Positions 27,976 to 34,535 are shown, counted from the stretch's first letter. The stretch: 64,000 bases of DNA from Planctomycetota bacterium (GCA_044222185.1 JBGANV010000010.1:64001-128000); one strand, 5' to 3'. Translations and numbers: made by a program. Notes: generated from the sequence alone by a model not told the origin.

Positions 27976-29438
27976 ATCCCGCCGCCCCGCGTCAACGCCT
28001 GTCCGTGGTCGCCGTGTGTGCGATATTCGTCGGGCTGTCGGTGGCGAGCAGCGTTCGCTCGACGGCGTTCATCGAGGCTGACGACGTCACCCACTACCTC
28101 TACTCGCGCTGGTTGTTCGAGTATCCGCGCAAGGCCGTGGACATCTGGGGAAGGCCGCTCGTCACGCTGTTCTACGCGCTTCCGGCGCAGCTCGGGCCTC
28201 TGTCGGCGCGGCTGGGTTCGATCCTGCTCGGCCTCGTCGCCGTGTGGACGGCGTGGCGCGTTGCAGCCAGTTCGGGCCTCCGGCGCGCGGCCCTCGTCGT
28301 CGCCGCGACGCTCGGCCTCCCATACGTCTTCACCCAGACCTGCGGGATTCTGACGGAGCTCCTGTTTGCGGCCCTGCTGGGCCTGGGGTTCGTGGCATAC
28401 CGTTCGAGCCGTCCCAGGGCGGCCGCCCTGGCGTGGTCGCTGCTGCCGCTCGCGCGTCCCGAGGGCTTCTTTCTCGGTCTCCTCTTCGGACTCGTCTTCC
28501 TGTTCGCCCGGCGTGCCCACACGACGCCGCGACTCTCGCCGGCGCGCTTCGCCAACGCCATGCTGCTCGGCAGCGGCACGGCGGTGTGGTGGCTCTCGGG
28601 TCTACCGATCTATCGCAGCGCGGCGTGGCTGATCGAGGAATGGCCGAAGAACTGGGCCGTCGAAAGCGTCTACGGGCACGGCCACCCGCTGCACTTCGTC
28701 GGGTTCCTCGCCGTCGTCGTGACTCCGGCGCTGATCCCGCCGTTCGTCGTCGGTGCTCGCGTGGCATGGCTTGCGGGCCGACGACTCGAATTGCTCGTGA
28801 TCGGTTTCGTCGTGGGCCTGCACGCGACGCTCTGGACGCTGGGCCTGTTCGGCTCGGCGGGATATCCGCGCTACCTCGTGACCGTCGCGCCGCTCATCGG
28901 CGCGGTCATCGCGCTCGGGATCGAGCGACTGTTTGCGGGGTGGACCCGGCTCCGATCCGCCGCTTCGACGGAGACGCGGTGGAGACGGTTCGAGATCGGT
29001 AGCGCGGCACTGCTGGCCACGGTGCTCATGTTCTGGCCCAACACCGGTCCCGTGCTCGGAGACGTGGACGTGAAATTCCTCACTGGGGTCTGGCCGTGGT
29101 GTTCGGCCTACCGCGCGGAGCATCCGACGATGCGCTTCGTCGTCGACCACCCGGCGTTCACCATGATCGGCGACTTCGATCCGTTCCGTCGCGGCTACCA
29201 GTTCAAGCCGAAGTTCCTGGACTATGCCGAGGTGGGCGACGTGGCCGTATGGGAGTCGAAGTTCGCCGCCCGTTACTCCGGCATCCGCAAGGAGGATCTG
29301 GCCCGGTACGGCTTCGAGCCGCTCCCGCGCGAGCTGGCCGTCGGTCCCGGTCCACACGCATGGGAGGCGCCCCGGCCTCCAGGCGGTGACCCCGAGCTCG
29401 CCGATTTCCAGTGGGACGTCCTCATCAAGCGGCGCTGA
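27972..29438 (+). CDS. Polytopic membrane protein, putative GT-C-fold glycosyltransferase (paralog 2)
   Basis: GTG overlaps the upstream stop. EADD, TE, RPEG, WPKNW and GYPRY motifs are collinear with paralog 1. Confidence 0.55.
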   Translation: MNPAAPRQRLSVVAVCAIFVGLSVASSVRSTAFIEADDVTHYLYSRWLFEYPRKAVDIWGRPLVTLFYALPAQLGPLSARLGSILLGLVAVWTAWRVAASSGLRRAALVVAATLGLPYVFTQTCGILTELLFAALLGLGFVAYRSSRPRAAALAWSLLPLARPEGFFLGLLFGLVFLFARRAHTTPRLSPARFANAMLLGSGTAVWWLSGLPIYRSAAWLIEEWPKNWAVESVYGHGHPLHFVGFLAVVVTPALIPPFVVGARVAWLAGRRLELLVIGFVVGLHATLWTLGLFGSAGYPRYLVTVAPLIGAVIALGIERLFAGWTRLRSAASTETRWRRFEIGSAALLATVLMFWPNTGPVLGDVDVKFLTGVWPWCSAYRAEHPTMRFVVDHPAFTMIGDFDPFRRGYQFKPKFLDYAEVGDVAVWESKFAARYSGIRKEDLARYGFEPLPRELAVGPGPHAWEAPRPPGGDPELADFQWDVLIKRR

Positions 29439-29464
29439 TCCGGAGCGAGCGCGCGGTGCGCGGC

Positions 29465-29480
29465 TACCATGGGCCCCATG
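29465..29480 (+). promoter_or_regulatory. Putative -10 box (TACCAT) and original leaderless ATG of aroC (intron 5' exon)
   Basis: TACCAT-gggcccc-ATG immediately precedes the intron's GTGCG. The same TACCAT hexamer is used in the tRNA promoter. Confidence 0.55.
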
Positions 29481-31524
29481 GTGCGTCCTGAACGCGAACG
29501 AAGCCGAAGCCGCGGAATGCGGCCGAGGATCCGTTCGCGATGCCGTGTTGAACCTGCGGGTGTGAGTCCCGTCGCGGTAAGCGCCGCAGCGCCGCGTAGC
29601 GGATCCCGGATGCGAGGAGAGATCCGAAGCATCGAAGCGGGATGTCGAGAGCCCGGCGTGGACCGTAAGGCCTGCGCGCGGGGAGCCACGTCTTGGGCCG
29701 AATGCGAAAGCGTGAACCTTGCAGGCTCGTGACATTGGTGCCCGAAAGGGCGGGCAAGCCGAGCCGGTCATGTCGCGGCGAAGGCAACAGACCGCGCCCA
29801 GAAGCGGAGCGGCGCAGGCATCTCCCGAGGTATTGATAACGGCACGAGATGACCGCTCGACACGGAACAGGAGAGACCCTACCCGGCGGACCTCGTCAGC
29901 CGCAGCCGCTTCCTATGAGCCACAAGGGAAAGGGGAGCGAGTCGGGAGGGAGTCCGAGGAGCCCGTAGTACTGCCGACATCGGAGACCAGAACTCCGACG
30001 GAGGGAAGGGGCTCTGCTTTTGTTGCGTCCGCGGACGGGGGTAAGCGCGCGGGCATGGCCGCAAGGCCCAACAACCCCAAAGAAGAAGCGCGAGAACTCC
30101 AACGCGGACTCTTCATGGCTGCCAGGCGCAGCCCGGTGCGGCGCTTCCACGCTCTCTTCGATCGGATCTCCAGGAGTGACGTCTTGGAGGAGGCGTGGCG
30201 GCGGGTTCGGAGCAATGGTGAAGCTGCCGGCGTCGATGGGGAAAGCCTCAAGATGATCGAGCAGAAGGGCGTCGAGGGGTTCCTCGAGGGCCTCGCGGCG
30301 GAGTCAGGAGCGGGACGCTATCGCCCAAAGCCGGTGAAGAGGCGAGACATCCCGAAGGCGGACGGGAAGCAGCGGTCGCTTGGGATCCCGACGGTGCGAG
30401 ATCGGGTGGCGCAGATGGCCGCGAAGATCGTGATCGAGCCGGTCTTCGAGGCCGACTTCAAGGACTGCTCCTTCGGGTTCCGTCCGAGAAGAAGCGCAAC
30501 CCAGGCGTTGGAGGCGATCCGCCTGCTTGGGGGTCGTGGACACCGCTTCGTCGTGGATGGCGACATCAAGAAGGACTTCGACAGCATCGATCAGGATCTC
30601 CTGATGGAGCGAGTCGCACCACGGATGTGTGATCGGCGTGTGCTCAAGCTGCTGTGGCAATGGCTCACGGCGGGCGTGATGGAGGAGGGCGAAGTGAGGA
30701 CATCCGTGGCGGGGACACCGCAAGGCGGCGTGATCTCACCGCTGGCTGCCAACATCTACCTGCACGACCTCGACAGACGCTGGCATGGCGAATGCGGGCA
30801 CCTCGGGAAACTCGTGCGGTACGCGGACGACTTCGTCGTTCTCTGCCGTACGAAAGCCGCGGCGCAGTCGGCCATGGCGTGGCTGAGAGAGGTGCTTGGG
30901 TCGTTGCGCCTCGAACTGCATCCGGACAAGACGAAACTGGTCGAACTCGGAGTGCACAAGGAAGGGTTCGTGTTCCTCGGCTGTCATCTGCGGTTGGTGC
31001 GCTCGGTGTTCAAGAACCGTGCATACCGCTTCCGGTGGCCGTCGCCGCGGGCCATGAACTCGATCCGAACACGCATCCGAGAGCTGACCGATCGCACGCG
31101 ATGGGCATGGAGGCAGGACCTCGACGCAGTCGTCGCGGGCCTGAACCCGGTCCTTCGCGGGTGGGTCCCTTTCACGCCGAAAGGGTGGGCTCCGTTCAGA
31201 GTGAAATCACCAGCATCGGAGAAGTTCCAGGAGATCGATCGGTACGTCTGCGAGCGGCTCACGAGGCTGCGGGCAGGATGGCACCGCAAGATCTGCCGCA
31301 AGGACCGACCGAGTCAGTTCCGGCTGAGGGACTGGTCACACCGCCGCTTCGTGCAAGAACACGGACGTCACAAGTTGCTCGGGACCGACCGTTACCCGGG
31401 AGGAGCGAACGCCGCATGAGAAAACCATCGGGAAGCCGTGTGCGGGAAACCCGCACGCACGGTTTGAATGGGGGCGACAGGAAACGGAGCTACGAAGGCC
31501 ACTGCGCCTGAGGTCCATCCCATG
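29481..31524 (+). mobile_element. Group II intron inserted at the aroC start codon
   Basis: 5' GTGCG. DIII-like GAGTCCGAGGAGCCCGTAGTAC...GGGAAGGGGCTC. RT ORF in DIV. Domain V AAGCCGTGTGCGGGAAACCCGCACGCACGGTTT (31433-31465; AGC triad, GAAA loop, AC bulge). DVI with bulged A at 31517. 3' end is 31523 or 31524. Confidence 0.92.
30055..31419 (+). CDS. ltrA: Group II intron reverse transcriptase/maturase, no endonuclease domain, possibly degenerate
   Basis: AAGVDG, RSLGIPTVRDRVAQ, SFGFRP, GTPQGGVISPL, RYADDF, LHPDKT, FLG, X domain LNPVLRGW. The upstream extension of the 566-aa ORF is ribozyme sequence. Confidence 0.92.
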   Translation: MAARPNNPKEEARELQRGLFMAARRSPVRRFHALFDRISRSDVLEEAWRRVRSNGEAAGVDGESLKMIEQKGVEGFLEGLAAESGAGRYRPKPVKRRDIPKADGKQRSLGIPTVRDRVAQMAAKIVIEPVFEADFKDCSFGFRPRRSATQALEAIRLLGGRGHRFVVDGDIKKDFDSIDQDLLMERVAPRMCDRRVLKLLWQWLTAGVMEEGEVRTSVAGTPQGGVISPLAANIYLHDLDRRWHGECGHLGKLVRYADDFVVLCRTKAAAQSAMAWLREVLGSLRLELHPDKTKLVELGVHKEGFVFLGCHLRLVRSVFKNRAYRFRWPSPRAMNSIRTRIRELTDRTRWAWRQDLDAVVAGLNPVLRGWVPFTPKGWAPFRVKSPASEKFQEIDRYVCERLTRLRAGWHRKICRKDRPSQFRLRDWSHRRFVQEHGRHKLLGTDRYPGGANAA

Positions 31525-32652
31525 AAGCGCCTTCTTTTCCGCACGGCCGGCGAGTCCCACGGCATGGGCTTGCTTGCATTCATCGAAGGGCTTCCGTTCG
31601 GGACACCGATCGACGTGCCCTTCATCGACGCCGCCCTGCGTCGGCGCCAGGGAGGCAAGGGGCGGAGCCGACGGCAGCAGATCGAGACCGATTCGGTCCG
31701 GGTCTTCGCGGGGTGCAAGCGGGGCCGCACGCTTGGGGGGCCCGTCGCGCTCTGGGTGGGCAACAAGGACGTGCGGATCGACGAGTACCGCAGGATCACC
31801 CGCCCACGCCCAGGTCATGCCGACCTGGCCGGCGCGATCCGCTTCCTCACGACGGACGTTGCCGACGTGATGGAGCGCGCCTCGGCACGGGAGACGGCGG
31901 CTCGGGTCGCCGCCGGCGCGCTGGCTCAATCCGTGCTCGACGAGGTGGGGATCCGGACCTTCGCCTGGGTCCGGGGGATCGGCGGGATCGATCTCGCGGG
32001 TTCGCCGAACGACGCCGTGGGAGCGGCGGAGCGCGACCGGTCGCCGTTCTACAGCCTCGATCCAGCCGGCGACGCGGCAGCCGAGCAGGCAGTGGAGGCG
32101 GCCCAGGCGGCGGGGGACACCCTCGGCGGCATGTTCGAGGTGCGGGTGGAGGGGGTCCCGGCCGGGCTGGGAAGCCACACGCAGTGGGACGCGCGCATGG
32201 ACGGCAGGCTTGCACAGGCGCTGATGTCCATTCAGGGAATCAAGGGTGTCGAGATCGGGTCAGGGATGCAAGCGTCTGTAGAAAAAGGACTTGCATTCCA
32301 CGATCCGATCATGCCGGAGGGCGGGGGCTCGTTCCTCCGCCCGACCAATCACGCGGGAGGGATCGAGGGCGGGCTGACCAACGGAGCGCCGATCGTGCTA
32401 CGCGCGGCGATGAAGCCGATCCCAACGGTCGGCCGGGCACTCGCGTCGGTGGACCTTGCGACCGGTGAGGCCGCGGCGGCGGCCTATGAGCGGTCGGACG
32501 TCTGCGCGGTCCCGGCCGCTTCGGTCGTGGGAGAGGCCATGGTGAGTCTCGTGGTCCTCGACGCGGTGCTGGAGTCGATCCCTGCTCCCACCTTCGGAGA
32601 ACTGGTCGCAGGTGTGGCGGCTTTCCGAGAGCGGGTGCGGCGGCTCGCTTGA
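31522..32652 (+). CDS. aroC: Chorismate synthase
   Basis: TAGESHG, RPRPGHADL, ERASARETAARVAAG, GDTLGG, NHAGGIEGG, MKPIPT, ERSDVC. Confidence 0.96.
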   Translation: MKRLLFRTAGESHGMGLLAFIEGLPFGTPIDVPFIDAALRRRQGGKGRSRRQQIETDSVRVFAGCKRGRTLGGPVALWVGNKDVRIDEYRRITRPRPGHADLAGAIRFLTTDVADVMERASARETAARVAAGALAQSVLDEVGIRTFAWVRGIGGIDLAGSPNDAVGAAERDRSPFYSLDPAGDAAAEQAVEAAQAAGDTLGGMFEVRVEGVPAGLGSHTQWDARMDGRLAQALMSIQGIKGVEIGSGMQASVEKGLAFHDPIMPEGGGSFLRPTNHAGGIEGGLTNGAPIVLRAAMKPIPTVGRALASVDLATGEAAAAAYERSDVCAVPAASVVGEAMVSLVVLDAVLESIPAPTFGELVAGVAAFRERVRRLA

Positions 32653-32771: not shown

Positions 32772-32844
32772 GCCAGCGTAGCTCAATTGGCAGAGCAGCG
32801 GTTTTGTAAACCGCAGGTTGACGGTTCAAGTCCGTTCGCTGGCT
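32772..32844 (+). tRNA. tRNA-Thr(TGT)
   Basis: GCCAGCG/CGCTGGC acceptor stem, anticodon arm GCGGT-TT-TGT-AA-ACCGC, GTTCAAGTC T-loop. Confidence 0.97.
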
Positions 32845-32879
32845 CTTGTCGTTTGACCGGCGCATGCGGGGAACGCAGC

Positions 32880-32961
32880 GGGGAGATACCGAAGCGGTCA
32901 AACGGGACAGACTGTAAATCTGTTGTCTTAGACTTCGGAGGTTCGAATCCTCCTCTCCCCA
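32880..32961 (+). tRNA. tRNA-Tyr(GTA)
   Basis: GGGGAGA/TCTCCCC acceptor, ACAGA-CT-GTA-AA-TCTGT, long variable arm, GTTCGAATC. Confidence 0.97.
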
Positions 32962-32988
32962 CTACGACGTGGTGAAAGGATCGGCTTC

Positions 32989-33059
32989 GCGGGTGTAGCT
33001 CAGTGGTAGAGCCCCAGCCTTCCAAGCTGGTTGCGAGGGTTCGATTCCCTTCACCCGCT
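32989..33059 (+). tRNA. tRNA-Gly(TCC)
   Basis: GCGGGTG/CACCCGC acceptor, CCAGC-CT-TCC-AA-GCTGG, GTTCGATTC. Confidence 0.97.
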
Positions 33060-33213
33060 TGTCGCGCACGAAACGCACCGGCGTGAACGCTGGAGCTTCT
33101 GGCGAGGCAGGAGATCGGAAACGTTGATCACGACGCGCGTCGTGAAGCGAGTGCGCACGAGAGTTTGAAGGTCTCGAGGTCAAGCGTCGCGACCTCGGGA
33201 CGGACGGTTCGAG

Positions 33214-33289
33214 GCTGCTGTAGCTCAGCTGGTAGAGCACCTCCTTGGTAAGGAGGAGGTCACGGGTTCAAATCCCGTCAGCAGCTCCA
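33214..33289 (+). tRNA. tRNA-Thr(GGT), encoded CCA
   Basis: GCTGCTG/CAGCAGC acceptor, CCTCC-TT-GGT-AA-GGAGG, GTTCAAATC, ends TCCA. Confidence 0.97.
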
Positions 33290-33329: not shown

Positions 33330-34535
33330 ATGGCAAAGGACGTCTTCAAGCGGACAAAACCGCACGTCAACATCGGAACGATCGGCCACGTCGACCACGG
33401 CAAGACGACGCTGACGGCGACCATCACGGCGACGCTCGCCATGAAGGGCTTCGCCGAGCGCCGCAACTACGATCAGATCGACAACGCTCCGGAAGAGCGC
33501 GAGCGTGGCATCACGATCAACACGGCTCACGTCGAGTACGAGACCGACAAGCGCCACTACGCGCACGTCGATTGCCCCGGCCACGCGGACTACGTGAAGA
33601 ACATGATCACGGGTGCCGCGCAGATGGACGGCGCGATCCTCGTCGTCGCGGCGACTGACGGCCCCATGCCGCAGACGCACGAGCACATCCTGCTCGCCAA
33701 GCAGGTCGGTGTGCCGTCGATCGTCGTCTTCATGAACAAGTGCGACTCGGTCGACGACCCGGAGATGTTGGACCTCGTCGAGATGGAGATCCGCGAGCTT
33801 CTCAGCAAGCACGGCTTCCCCGGTGACAAGGCGCCCGTCGTTCGCGGTTCCGCCCTCGTCGCGTCGAAAGCGGTCGACTCGAACAACTTCGATCACCCCG
33901 ATTTGAAGTGCATCCGCGAGCTGATGGACGCGGTCGATGCGTTCATCCCGACGCCGGTCCGCGAGGTCGACAAGCCCTTCCTCATGCCGGTGGAAGACGT
34001 CTTCTCGATCGAAGGTCGTGGAACGGTCGCGACGGGCCGTGTCGAGCGTGGCAAGGTCCACGTCAACGACGACCTGGAGCTCGTCGGCCTCTACCCGCTG
34101 TCCAAGAAGACGGTGTGCACGGGCGTCGAGATGTTCCGCAAGCTCCTCGACGAAGGAATGGCCGGTGACAACATCGGCGTGCTCCTCCGCTCCCTGAAGA
34201 AGGAAGACGTCGAGCGCGGGCAGGTTCTCGCGAAGCCGGGCTCGATCACGCCGCACACGAAGTTCACGGGCGAGGTCTACATCCTCAAGAAAGAGGAAGG
34301 TGGGCGCCACACGCCGTTCTTCAACGGCTATCGCCCGCAGTTCTACTTCCGCACGACCGACGTCACCGGCACGGCCAAGCTGCCGGACGGTGTCGAAATG
34401 GTCATGCCCGGCGACAACGTCACGATCACGGTCGAGCTGATCGCGCCGATCGCCATGGAGGAAGGCCTCCGCTTCGCCATCCGCGAGGGTGGACGAACGG
34501 TCGGCGCAGGCATCGTTGCGAAGGTTCTCGCCTGA
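33330..34535 (+). CDS. tuf: Elongation factor Tu
   Basis: [42 protein letters not shown]. Confidence 0.99.

Follow-up and report, generated by a model that had tools for sequence, protein, structure and literature searches.

A group II intron behind the aroC start codon of a Planctomycetota bacterium probably represents a class C-type lineage that targets the start codons of leaderless-type genes

RESULTS

A group II intron directly behind the aroC start codon

In a Planctomycetota bacterium, aroC, the gene of chorismate synthase, carries a complete group II intron directly behind its start codon. The intron lies in a 64,000-nucleotide (nt) stretch (GCA_044222185.1, JBGANV010000010.1:64001-128000), which as a whole is called the window hereafter, and all positions are counted from its first letter. 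This intron probably belongs to one monophyletic branch of the class C (IIC)-type group II introns, a sub-lineage that no longer targets transcription terminators but the start codons of leaderless-type genes, and that carries a spare start at its 3′ end. A first-pass annotation of the window had proposed that the element homes into start codons; this proposal is now backed by about 100 related copies at different genes, from which mobility is deduced, and by pairings that covary with the exons.

The upstream gene stops at 29436-29438 and is followed by a 39-nt spacer with TACCAT, by ATG at 29478-29480, and by GTGCG from 29481 onward. At the other end, GAGGT (31510-31514) and ccatccc (31515-31521) precede an ATG (31522-31524) and the AAG CGC CTT that starts at 31525; the gene product matches chorismate synthase (Pfam, 3.7e-105; profile positions 3-327). 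Every base that the first-pass annotation had quoted for these flanks, including TACCAT at 29465-29470 and the gggcccc between it and the first ATG, was confirmed, as was the occurrence of CCCATG on either side (29475-29480 and 31519-31524), and deleting 29481-31524 indeed yields ATG-AAG-CGC in frame. Two Rfam families match the intron above their gathering scores, namely, RF02003 (domains I to IV) on 29554-29668 with 57 bits and RF00029 (domains V and VI) on 31431-31523 with 46 bits. Domain V, a bulged A in domain VI (A31517) and the 5′ GUGCG at 29481 are present as group II hallmarks. The 3′ end, however, is not the AY expected of group II introns, since the intron ends in CCCAUG, and 98 of 104 lineage copies among the matches listed end in AUG.

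Related copies follow a start codon and end in another

Relatives were collected by a protein-guided scan of one genome per species, which gave 80 loci, and by a scan with a domain V pattern derived from the lineage itself, which gave at least 120 stretches and was pooled with all other loci for the census; all census counts were made among the matches listed and hence are minimum values for the lineage. The pool comprised 128 matches of the domain V pattern, 127 of them unique and 117 analysable for downstream sequence. A start-codon-type end was found in 104 of the 117, a canonical class C end in 11 (Paenibacillus, Lentisphaerae and Clostridia types), and a damaged or odd end in 2. The terminal codon of the 104 copies is ATG in 98, GTG in 5 and CTG in 1; their commonest 3′ end is AGGAUCUACCAAUG, and CTACCAATG occurs in 86. 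The seven closest relatives (L005-L010 and L066; 48-63% identity), which come from metagenome-assembled genomes (MAGs) of Acidobacteriota, Planctomycetota and Myxococcota, share the 5′ flank CATG-GTGCG, with the intron starting at GTGCG, and the 3′ end CUACCAAUG, but CCGUG in L066. Relatives from Bacillota have the canonical 3′ end CUACUCUAC.

The terminal codon is mostly in frame with a downstream gene. In 99 copies the downstream sequence spans 100 codons or more; in 82 of these, frame 0 as set by the terminal ATG stays open over at least that length, as do the other two frames in 11 and 45. Pfam assigned ten of the downstream open reading frames (ORFs) to rmlC, TANGO2/NRDE, hrcA, dcd, radA, dnaX, galT-like, lpxC, acs and hutI-like amidohydrolase families. 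In seven of these ten the family match starts within the first 8 residues and at profile position 1-3, whereas it starts further in for the dnaX, acs and hutI-like ORFs.

A profile of the first 220 nt resolved 39 5′ junctions, at which the 5′ exon ends in ATG (36 copies), GTG (one), TTG (one) or an aberrant sequence (one), with CATG in 29. The homologues are thus not inserted at random sites. The intron is 1947-2207 nt long in 27 copies, and 12 copies, of 399-1546 nt, are internally deleted with both ends kept; of the 11 deleted copies whose downstream sequence extends far enough, 10 are still followed by an ORF of at least 100 codons. The lineage termini have the consensus GUGCGUCGUGACG and AUCUACCAAUG, and those of the window intron read GUGCGUCCUGAACGC and GGUCCAUCCCAUG.

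Several copies deviate in structure. Three full-length copies of one sub-clade (L116, L200 and L232) have UCGCG right after the ATG in place of GUGCG, or GUCGCG if the G of the ATG is intronic, and a group II intron would not usually begin with either. L224 holds two lineage copies within 3 kb (at about 3972 and 6787), a full one of 2207 nt that starts with GUGUG, and a 787-nt one whose 5′ junction, CATC-ATGTG, is aberrant. In three Burkholderiales MAGs, ORF-less derivatives of 919 nt with both ends intact (L123, L147 and L168) are located at genes of a secreted protein, radA and lpxC, which suggests a non-autonomous mini-intron that may be mobilised in trans.

Exon pairings place the insertion between codons 1 and 2

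The first-pass annotation had taken the CATG at 29769-29772, in the loop of GCCGAGCCGgtCATGtcgCGGCGAAGGC, for exon-binding site 1 (EBS1), the partner of intron-binding site 1 (IBS1) in the 5′ exon. This assignment is sustained by the relatives: the hairpin was located in 32 of 39 copies, the loop reads CAUN in all 32, and its fourth base tracks exon position −4, with which it pairs in 34 of 37 copies. Exon changes are compensated where GATG occurs with CAUC (L116) or CAUU (L157 and L195), GGTG with CAUU (L198), and TATG with CAUA (L202); EBS1 and exon mismatch in three copies (L123, L184 and L232).

For EBS3, every alignment column of the first 480 nt was compared with every exon position in 37 copies. 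In 35 of the 37, column 439, which corresponds to U29833, is the Watson-Crick complement of the base that follows the terminal AUG, a score that none of 2000 permutations attained. A separate scan that also accepted G-U pairs scored 36 of 37 for it, and there the best column in 60 permutations fitted 25 of 37. For exon positions −5 to −20 and +2 to +4, no column of these 480 nt covaried above the null in the 37 copies. The window copy itself has four of four EBS1-IBS1 pairs and a U-A pair for EBS3-IBS3.

Because EBS3 complements the base following the AUG, the 3′ splice site is placed behind this AUG, giving a non-AY end. Together, the covariations of EBS1 and EBS3 settle the ambiguity that the two ATGs leave: N-AUG closes the 5′ exon, AUG closes the intron, and codon 2 opens the 3′ exon. 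With EBS1 on N-AUG and EBS3 on the first base of codon 2, insertion occurs exactly between codons 1 and 2. RNA target recognition, as this covariation shows it, involves five bases only, as in class C, and no EBS2-type pairing.

An ordinary intron in the aroC leader was weighed at this point. It would be spliced between CCAU and CCCAUG, or one base before the final G, leaving the terminal ATG in the exon and making the ATG of the 5′ flank a coincidence or a duplication. The usual AY end of group II introns fits such boundaries, CCCAU and the Rfam domain V/VI match both stop at 31523, and the doubled CCCATG leaves the boundaries ambiguous in the window sequence alone. An earlier splice site, however, would give EBS3 an invariant partner, whereas EBS3 follows the post-AUG base in the 35 copies, and EBS1 covaries with the base preceding the 5′-flank ATG. 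Moreover, the bulged A would lie just 1-2 nt from a splice site at 31518, intron-less relatives have a single ATG directly before AAR-CGN, and L066, ending in CCGUG, has AY at neither position. An ordinary leader intron is therefore very improbable, and the start codon-terminated intron is retained below.

Leaderless-type promoter signature at the insertion sites

The hexamer TANNNT, with its last T 4-10 nt before the start codon, was found in 34 of 37 5′ exons versus 32 of 2753 other ATGs of the same loci (1.2%). Hexamer and ATG are separated by 6 nt (16 copies), 7 nt (15), 8 nt (two) or 4 nt (one); TAGAAT, TACAAT, TAAAAT and TATAAT are examples, the window has TACCAT, and two of the three 5′ exons lacking TANNNT have GACAAT. 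A TANNNT about 12 bp 5′ of the start codon has been described as the signature of leaderless genes, in the form T-A-n-n-n-T in high-GC bacteria (PMC3160421). The TACCAT that the first-pass annotation had quoted is, as judged from motif and spacing, the −10-type box of a leaderless-type gene start, and a TANNNT 6-7 nt before the ATG would put the transcription start at or beside the A of the ATG. Scanning 29250-29600 found no terminator-like site, the kind of target, along with attC, expected for class C; a TANNNT box was found instead. The intron target is therefore read as the first codon of leaderless-type genes.

The same context exists where the intron is absent. Intron-less aroC has an ATG at the junction, as the first-pass annotation had expected, in three genomes of the same family, which read ATG-AAA-CGN (MKRLGFRTAGESHG); their genes begin with TAGCCT-N8-ATG-AAA-CGC or TAATCT-N8-ATG-AAA-CGA and encode the N terminus MKRL, as in the window. 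Across the host genome (7.08 Mb, 67.5% G+C), TANNNT before the first ATG of long ORFs peaks at spacers of 6-9 nt, with 41-53 cases per spacer versus mostly 5-25 at other spacers.

Two observations concern the 5′ exon of the window (29463-29480, CTACCATGGGCCCCATG). Its part CTACCATG resembles the 3′ end of the lineage itself (CUACCAAUG), and the ATG of CTACCATG shares the frame of the aroC ATG; it could have been left by an older insertion or be nothing more than the −10 box. Together with the first G of the intron, the CTACCATG region forms the palindrome CCATGG-gcc-CCATGG.

Two other explanations for the association with −10-like boxes have to be considered. One is selection after insertion: the intron would insert at any N-AUG-N matching EBS1 and EBS3, by a ribonucleoprotein (RNP) blind to promoters, and survival and transcription would be limited to copies at the first codon of leaderless genes. 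The RNA pairing spans five bases with no column covarying with exon positions −5 to −20, the terminal AUG renders exactly these insertions harmless, and defective copies persist before intact genes, all of which selection would explain. Intergenic insertions, on the other hand, would be neutral and should persist, yet TANNNT is found at 34 of 37 junctions and GACAAT at two more, and class C relatives use a structural DNA cue, the terminator hairpin (PMC4424553), which makes a non-sequence cue plausible for the start-codon lineage as well. We consider selection by itself a reasonable although somewhat unlikely explanation. The other is that TANNNT is no promoter and is read directly by the intron-encoded protein as a DNA motif within a longer homing site. 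Its strong conservation would agree with this, and group II intron proteins are described as contacting a few target positions beyond the EBS-IBS pairings (PMC12584367). But the T, A and position-6 T with a free middle and a spacing of 6-7 nt are those of the leaderless −10 box of high-GC bacteria (PMC3160421); the spacing shifts by one or two bases, unusually for a homing site that a protein reads; intron-free host genes and the intron-less aroC of relatives show the same peak of offsets; and the protein has no DNA-binding or endonuclease domain. A protein-read motif is thus improbable, and we keep to the reading of TANNNT as the −10 box of leaderless-type genes.

The intron and its protein are related to class C

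The 454-amino-acid ORF (30055-31419) matches RVT_1 (1.9e-34) and weakly GIIM, with no endonuclease domain in Pfam. Its nearest solved structures are the reverse transcriptases (RTs) of GsI-IIC (1.8e-53) and of the E. rectale IIC type (1.2e-49), those of the CL-type T. elongatus intron (6me0, 8.5e-40) and LtrA (2.3e-39) being farther. RF02003 also matches canonical class C-type copies of Bacillota (L017, L042 and L014) at 86-121 bits. Between the intron's 5′ end and the ORF there are 574 nt (domains I to III), and the Rfam core starts 73 nt in. Class C also includes the O. iheyensis and B. halodurans introns.

In an RT tree of 93 rows, all 39 start-codon-type rows, that is, 38 so labelled plus L116, whose end was read from its sequence, form one clade with an SH-like approximate likelihood ratio test (SH-aLRT) support of 95. 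This clade is sister (support 91) to a 47-row class C clade of Bacillota, and more canonical-ended rows branch outside; nine Paenibacillaceae rows have canonical 3′ ends. Placement of the RT in a tree, as the first-pass annotation had advised, thus gave one start-codon-type clade related to class C. Hosts of the clade include Acidobacteriota, Planctomycetota, Myxococcota, Burkholderiales, Steroidobacteraceae and Spirochaetota, to which the domain V scan adds Gemmatimonadota and Rokubacteria; Sorangium sp. So ce176 and Polyangium fumosum DSM 14668, both from that scan, are cultured hosts. Another group II intron of the window's genome (L004, C1:30776-34251) is unrelated; it has the canonical end CCCUACCCCUAU and a strong domain V/VI match (59.7 bits), and it was used as an outgroup.

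Domain VI combines a bulged A with a Shine-Dalgarno-like motif

In an RNAalifold consensus of 10 copies, domain V is standard and domain VI has a conserved bulged A; 8 of the 29 pairs show compensatory changes. A fold of domains V and VI from the single sequence, which paired AUGGG with CCCAU, was set aside for this comparative structure. The bulged A is 7 nt from the splice site in the window and 6 nt in most relatives, a length equal to that of the class C 3′ consensus CCUACYCGAU (PMC4028801).

The first-pass annotation had also asked whether other copies end in a Shine-Dalgarno (SD) sequence plus ATG. ATG or GTG stands at the end of 103 of 104 copies; an SD-like 4-mer lies 5-16 nt before the terminal start codon in only 66 of the 104, versus 0 of 27 canonical class C-type ends. 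The AGGA or GAGG sits in the 3′ strand of domain VI, 7-8 nt before the terminal start codon. Furthermore, an in-frame ATG at 31468, in the region 31468-31521 formed by the domain V-VI junction and domain VI, lengthens the aroC frame by 18 codons (31468..32652, 394 amino acids), and gene callers may annotate this intron-derived extension as part of aroC.

Remnants of the intron precede intact genes

The host genome has two domain VI remnants of 60-64 nt, 81-82% identical to the window, and the search of this genome found no second full intron copy. Both remnants end in GAGGT-N7-ATG directly before intact ORFs, encoding a hutI-like amidohydrolase (419 amino acids) and a protein with a signal peptide-like start. 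Since no ribozyme remains at these sites, the two genes can only start at the intron-derived AUG. Such remnants and the internally deleted copies before intact genes argue for a splicing-independent translation, and we infer that translation can start at the intron-borne AUG. L285 and L295 are further domain VI fossils, with homology extending beyond the 14-mer used for the fossil scan; the other loci among the 100 new ones from that scan were mostly chance matches in low-GC genomes (68) or indistinguishable from chance. Viewed by eye, the fossil before the hutI-like gene (L002; C7 of the host genome, minus strand, about 1570-2830 and 2850-2940) is cut off upstream by a DDE transposase-like ORF, and farther upstream a 9-nt unit (CTGCGATGC) is repeated in tandem about ten times.

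The window copy itself has an open ORF with an intact YADD, and its maturase motif RGWGNYF reads RGWVPFTPKGWAPF through an 8-amino-acid duplication; a second 8-amino-acid insertion is found near the C terminus. The duplication is a diverged 24-nt tandem (GWVPFTPK/GWAPFRVK; window 31165-31240, about residues 371-395 of the protein) that is absent from five relatives, and the branch of the window copy (0.43) is the longest in its sub-clade. The altered motif and the long branch imply that the window copy may rely largely on the intron-borne start. In sequencing data of another study, contigs from a sludge metagenome (X2) bridge both junctions with few differences, indicating that the intron-bearing allele is present in a second study and stable. 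An RNA run (X20, a metatranscriptome) gave only conserved pieces of related introns, of 90-95% likeness and probably from other organisms. Joints within the intron that skip the ORF were seen in sequencing runs, and they were discarded as evidence for having short sides (20-39 nt).

The window copy was also weighed as a decaying relic that no longer splices, with aroC expressed only from the intron-borne SD plus AUG or from the in-frame ATG 31468. It is the sole full copy in its genome, with the longest branch of its sub-clade, an altered RGWGNYF and a second insertion, and the two other copies of the genome are already reduced to domain VI. Yet the ORF is open with YADD intact; domain V, the bulged A and the pairings of EBS1-IBS1 (4/4) and EBS3-IBS3 (U-A) are all intact; and the X2 contigs span both junctions with few differences, as expected of a stable allele. 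We regard a relic state as doubtful, and the window copy is treated here as a member of the start-codon lineage with its ribozyme parts in place.

Features of the locus

The coordinates of all features are collected in Table 1. Directly 3′ of aroC lie four tRNA genes (32772-33286), followed by tuf (EF-Tu, 33330-34535), in the usual tRNA-tufB-type order.

Table 1. Intron, exon and promoter-like features at the aroC locus of the window
Feature	Coordinates	Strand	Basis or remark
TACCAT (TANNNT), −10-like hexamer	29465..29470	+	7 nt 5′ of the aroC ATG; leaderless-type promoter signature
IBS1 CAUG, the final four 5′-exon bases; contains the native aroC start codon (29478-29480)	29477..29480	+	
Group II intron, complete (2044 nt), from GUGCG to CCCAUG; start-codon lineage, related to class C (IIC)	29481..31524	+	Rfam; EBS1/IBS1 and EBS3/IBS3 covariation; domain VI geometry
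Domain I core, match of Rfam group-II-D1D4-4	29554..29668	+	57.4 bits, gathering score 49
EBS1 CAUG, in the GCCGAGCCG...CGGCGAAGGC hairpin loop; partner of the start codon and position −4	29769..29772	+	
EBS3 (U) in GGUA-N; partner A31525, first base of the 3′ exon	29833..29833	+	Alignment column 439
Intron-encoded protein, 454 amino acids, RT (YADD intact) and maturase X, no endonuclease	30055..31419	+	Pfam, tree
Domain V, starts with the AGC triad	31434..31463	+	
Domain VI; bulged A at 31517, branch-point candidate 7 nt from the 3′ splice site	31470..31519	+	RNAalifold
Shine-Dalgarno-like GAGG, 3′ strand of domain VI, 8 nt 5′ of the terminal AUG	31510..31513	+	
Intron-terminal AUG (non-AY 3′ end), in the aroC frame; putative replacement start codon	31522..31524	+	
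aroC 3′ exon, codon 2 to stop; IBS3 is A31525	31525..32652	+	Pfam Chorismate_synt 3.7e-105

DISCUSSION

Under the explanation favored here, EBS1 (CAUN) pairs with N-A-U-G and EBS3 with the first base of codon 2, so that the intron integrates between codons 1 and 2 of a leaderless-type gene. Splicing would restore the original leaderless junction of AUG and codon 2, and the ribozyme would have to retain a 5′ exon just three nucleotides long until the second splicing step is over. Without splicing, or from a 3′ fragment alone, ribosomes would start at the intron-borne SD and AUG and produce the identical protein; aroC would thus be expressed with or without splicing. The promoter context could arise in two ways: the RNP may prefer DNA opened at such promoters, or only such insertions may be both harmless and transcribed.

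Several points weigh against this explanation. Of the 104 copies, 38 lack the SD-like motif, L005, L006 and L008 as the closest relatives among them, and where present it is base-paired within domain VI. No in-frame ORF of at least 100 codons follows 17 of the 99 testable copies. At exon position −4 the covariation is modest, since 34 of 37 copies fit and the null reaches up to 33, and three copies are mismatched. An E. coli-type promoter scan of 29250-29600 came out empty, and the −10 reading stands on motif and spacing only. Four sequencing runs gave no contig joining 29480 to 31525, hence neither an empty site nor spliced RNA; no empty site of the same species was found either, the nearest intron-less aroC, from the same family, having 58-60% protein identity. 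The RT tree was built without reference proteins of other intron classes, and the class C placement is that given by the ranking of solved structures, Rfam and the canonical-ended neighbors. Finally, the census copies were chosen by a domain V pattern derived from the lineage, from an incomplete list, and are relatives and not independent events, though they lie at different genes.

Many properties are those of class C introns such as GsI-IIC: a length of about 2 kb, a protein with RT and X domains without endonuclease, nearest solved RTs of class IIC, the same Rfam family for domains I to IV, a short EBS1 (4 nt) and a single EBS3 base without EBS2, an RT position sister to or within the canonical-ended class C-type RTs, and an equal domain VI length to the splice site. 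Unlike class C, the target lies between N-AUG and N at leaderless-type starts and is neither an intrinsic terminator nor attC; the 3′ end is AAUG or CAUG and not AY; and domain VI has a purine-rich 3′ strand that carries an SD-like motif. The class C consensus, published as GUNYGCCNRGCAUGG for the 5′ end and CCUACYCGAU for the 3′ end (PMC4028801), is not matched by the 5′ end GUGCGUCSUGA, and of these termini only the length of CUAC plus 5 nt is kept.

Insertion at initiation and termination codons is described for a proteobacterial IIB1/CL1 lineage (Avi.groEL and EcKTE56.groEL; Michel et al. 2007, as cited in PMC12584367). According to the available text of that account, introns of this lineage always have a 300-700-nt insertion in subdomain Ia near the 5′ end, EcKTE56.groEL being 3228 nt long, and insertion re-creates the codon, with UAA of groEL becoming UAG (PMC12584367). 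The lineage described here is similarly tied to a start codon of housekeeping genes (aroC here; radA, dnaX, lpxC, hrcA, dcd and rmlC in other copies), which insertion likewise re-creates, but the window intron has 2044 nt, is IIC-related and possesses neither a 5′-subterminal insertion nor an endonuclease. Membership in the IIB1 lineage was rejected, as only 574 nt precede the ORF, the lineage copies are 1947-2207 nt long, and the closest RTs are IIC and not the CL-type 6me0. In the available part of the IIB1 account, no mention of leaderless promoters or of an SD plus AUG at the intron end was met (PMC12584367). Another parallel is provided by IIC-attC introns such as S.ma.I2, which carry an outward promoter, Pout, in integron cassettes, with the opposite strand logic (PMC3001079). 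Both are class C sub-lineages with a specialised target of their own and an expression signal rescuing the downstream gene, as far as the available part of that study describes it (PMC3001079); in the present lineage, by contrast, the signal would be an SD plus AUG at the intron 3′ end in sense orientation, and the target a start codon.

The available text of a 2015 review lists homing sites, terminators and attC as the only specificities of bacterial group II introns (PMC4424553). In the open full-text literature no account of an IIC-type lineage at start codons or leaderless genes was found, Michel et al. 2007, Simon et al. 2008 and supplements lying outside this scope. The lineage is apparently large, previously undescribed and present in many bacterial phyla.

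A further-reaching scenario, drawn by analogy and in our judgment unlikely as it stands, is that these introns are promoter-guided. The RNP would reverse-splice into the exposed non-template strand of the leaderless open complex, much as single-stranded terminator hairpins are used by class C introns, insertion would make the gene SD-led, and a decayed ribozyme would leave its domain VI as a fossil 5′ untranslated region (UTR) with a ribosome-binding site. If true, the lineage would be a natural source from which SD-led translation starts arise in many phyla, and its ribozyme would splice with a three-nucleotide 5′-triphosphate exon.

On the explanation favored here, the first codon of leaderless genes would be a fourth target logic for group II introns, besides homing sites, terminators and attC, and it would be recognized through an EBS1 whose CAU consists of the same three bases as the initiator tRNA anticodon. 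A large natural lineage appears to have traded the AY 3′ end for a functional start codon, which offers a way for a mobile intron to occupy aroC, radA, dnaX or lpxC independently of splicing. This would tie intron mobility to a change from leaderless to SD-led translation, with domain VI fossils serving as leaders. For annotation, the start codons and 5′ UTRs of such genes would be intron-derived, and boundary predictors that expect AY would miss the 3′ end of these introns.

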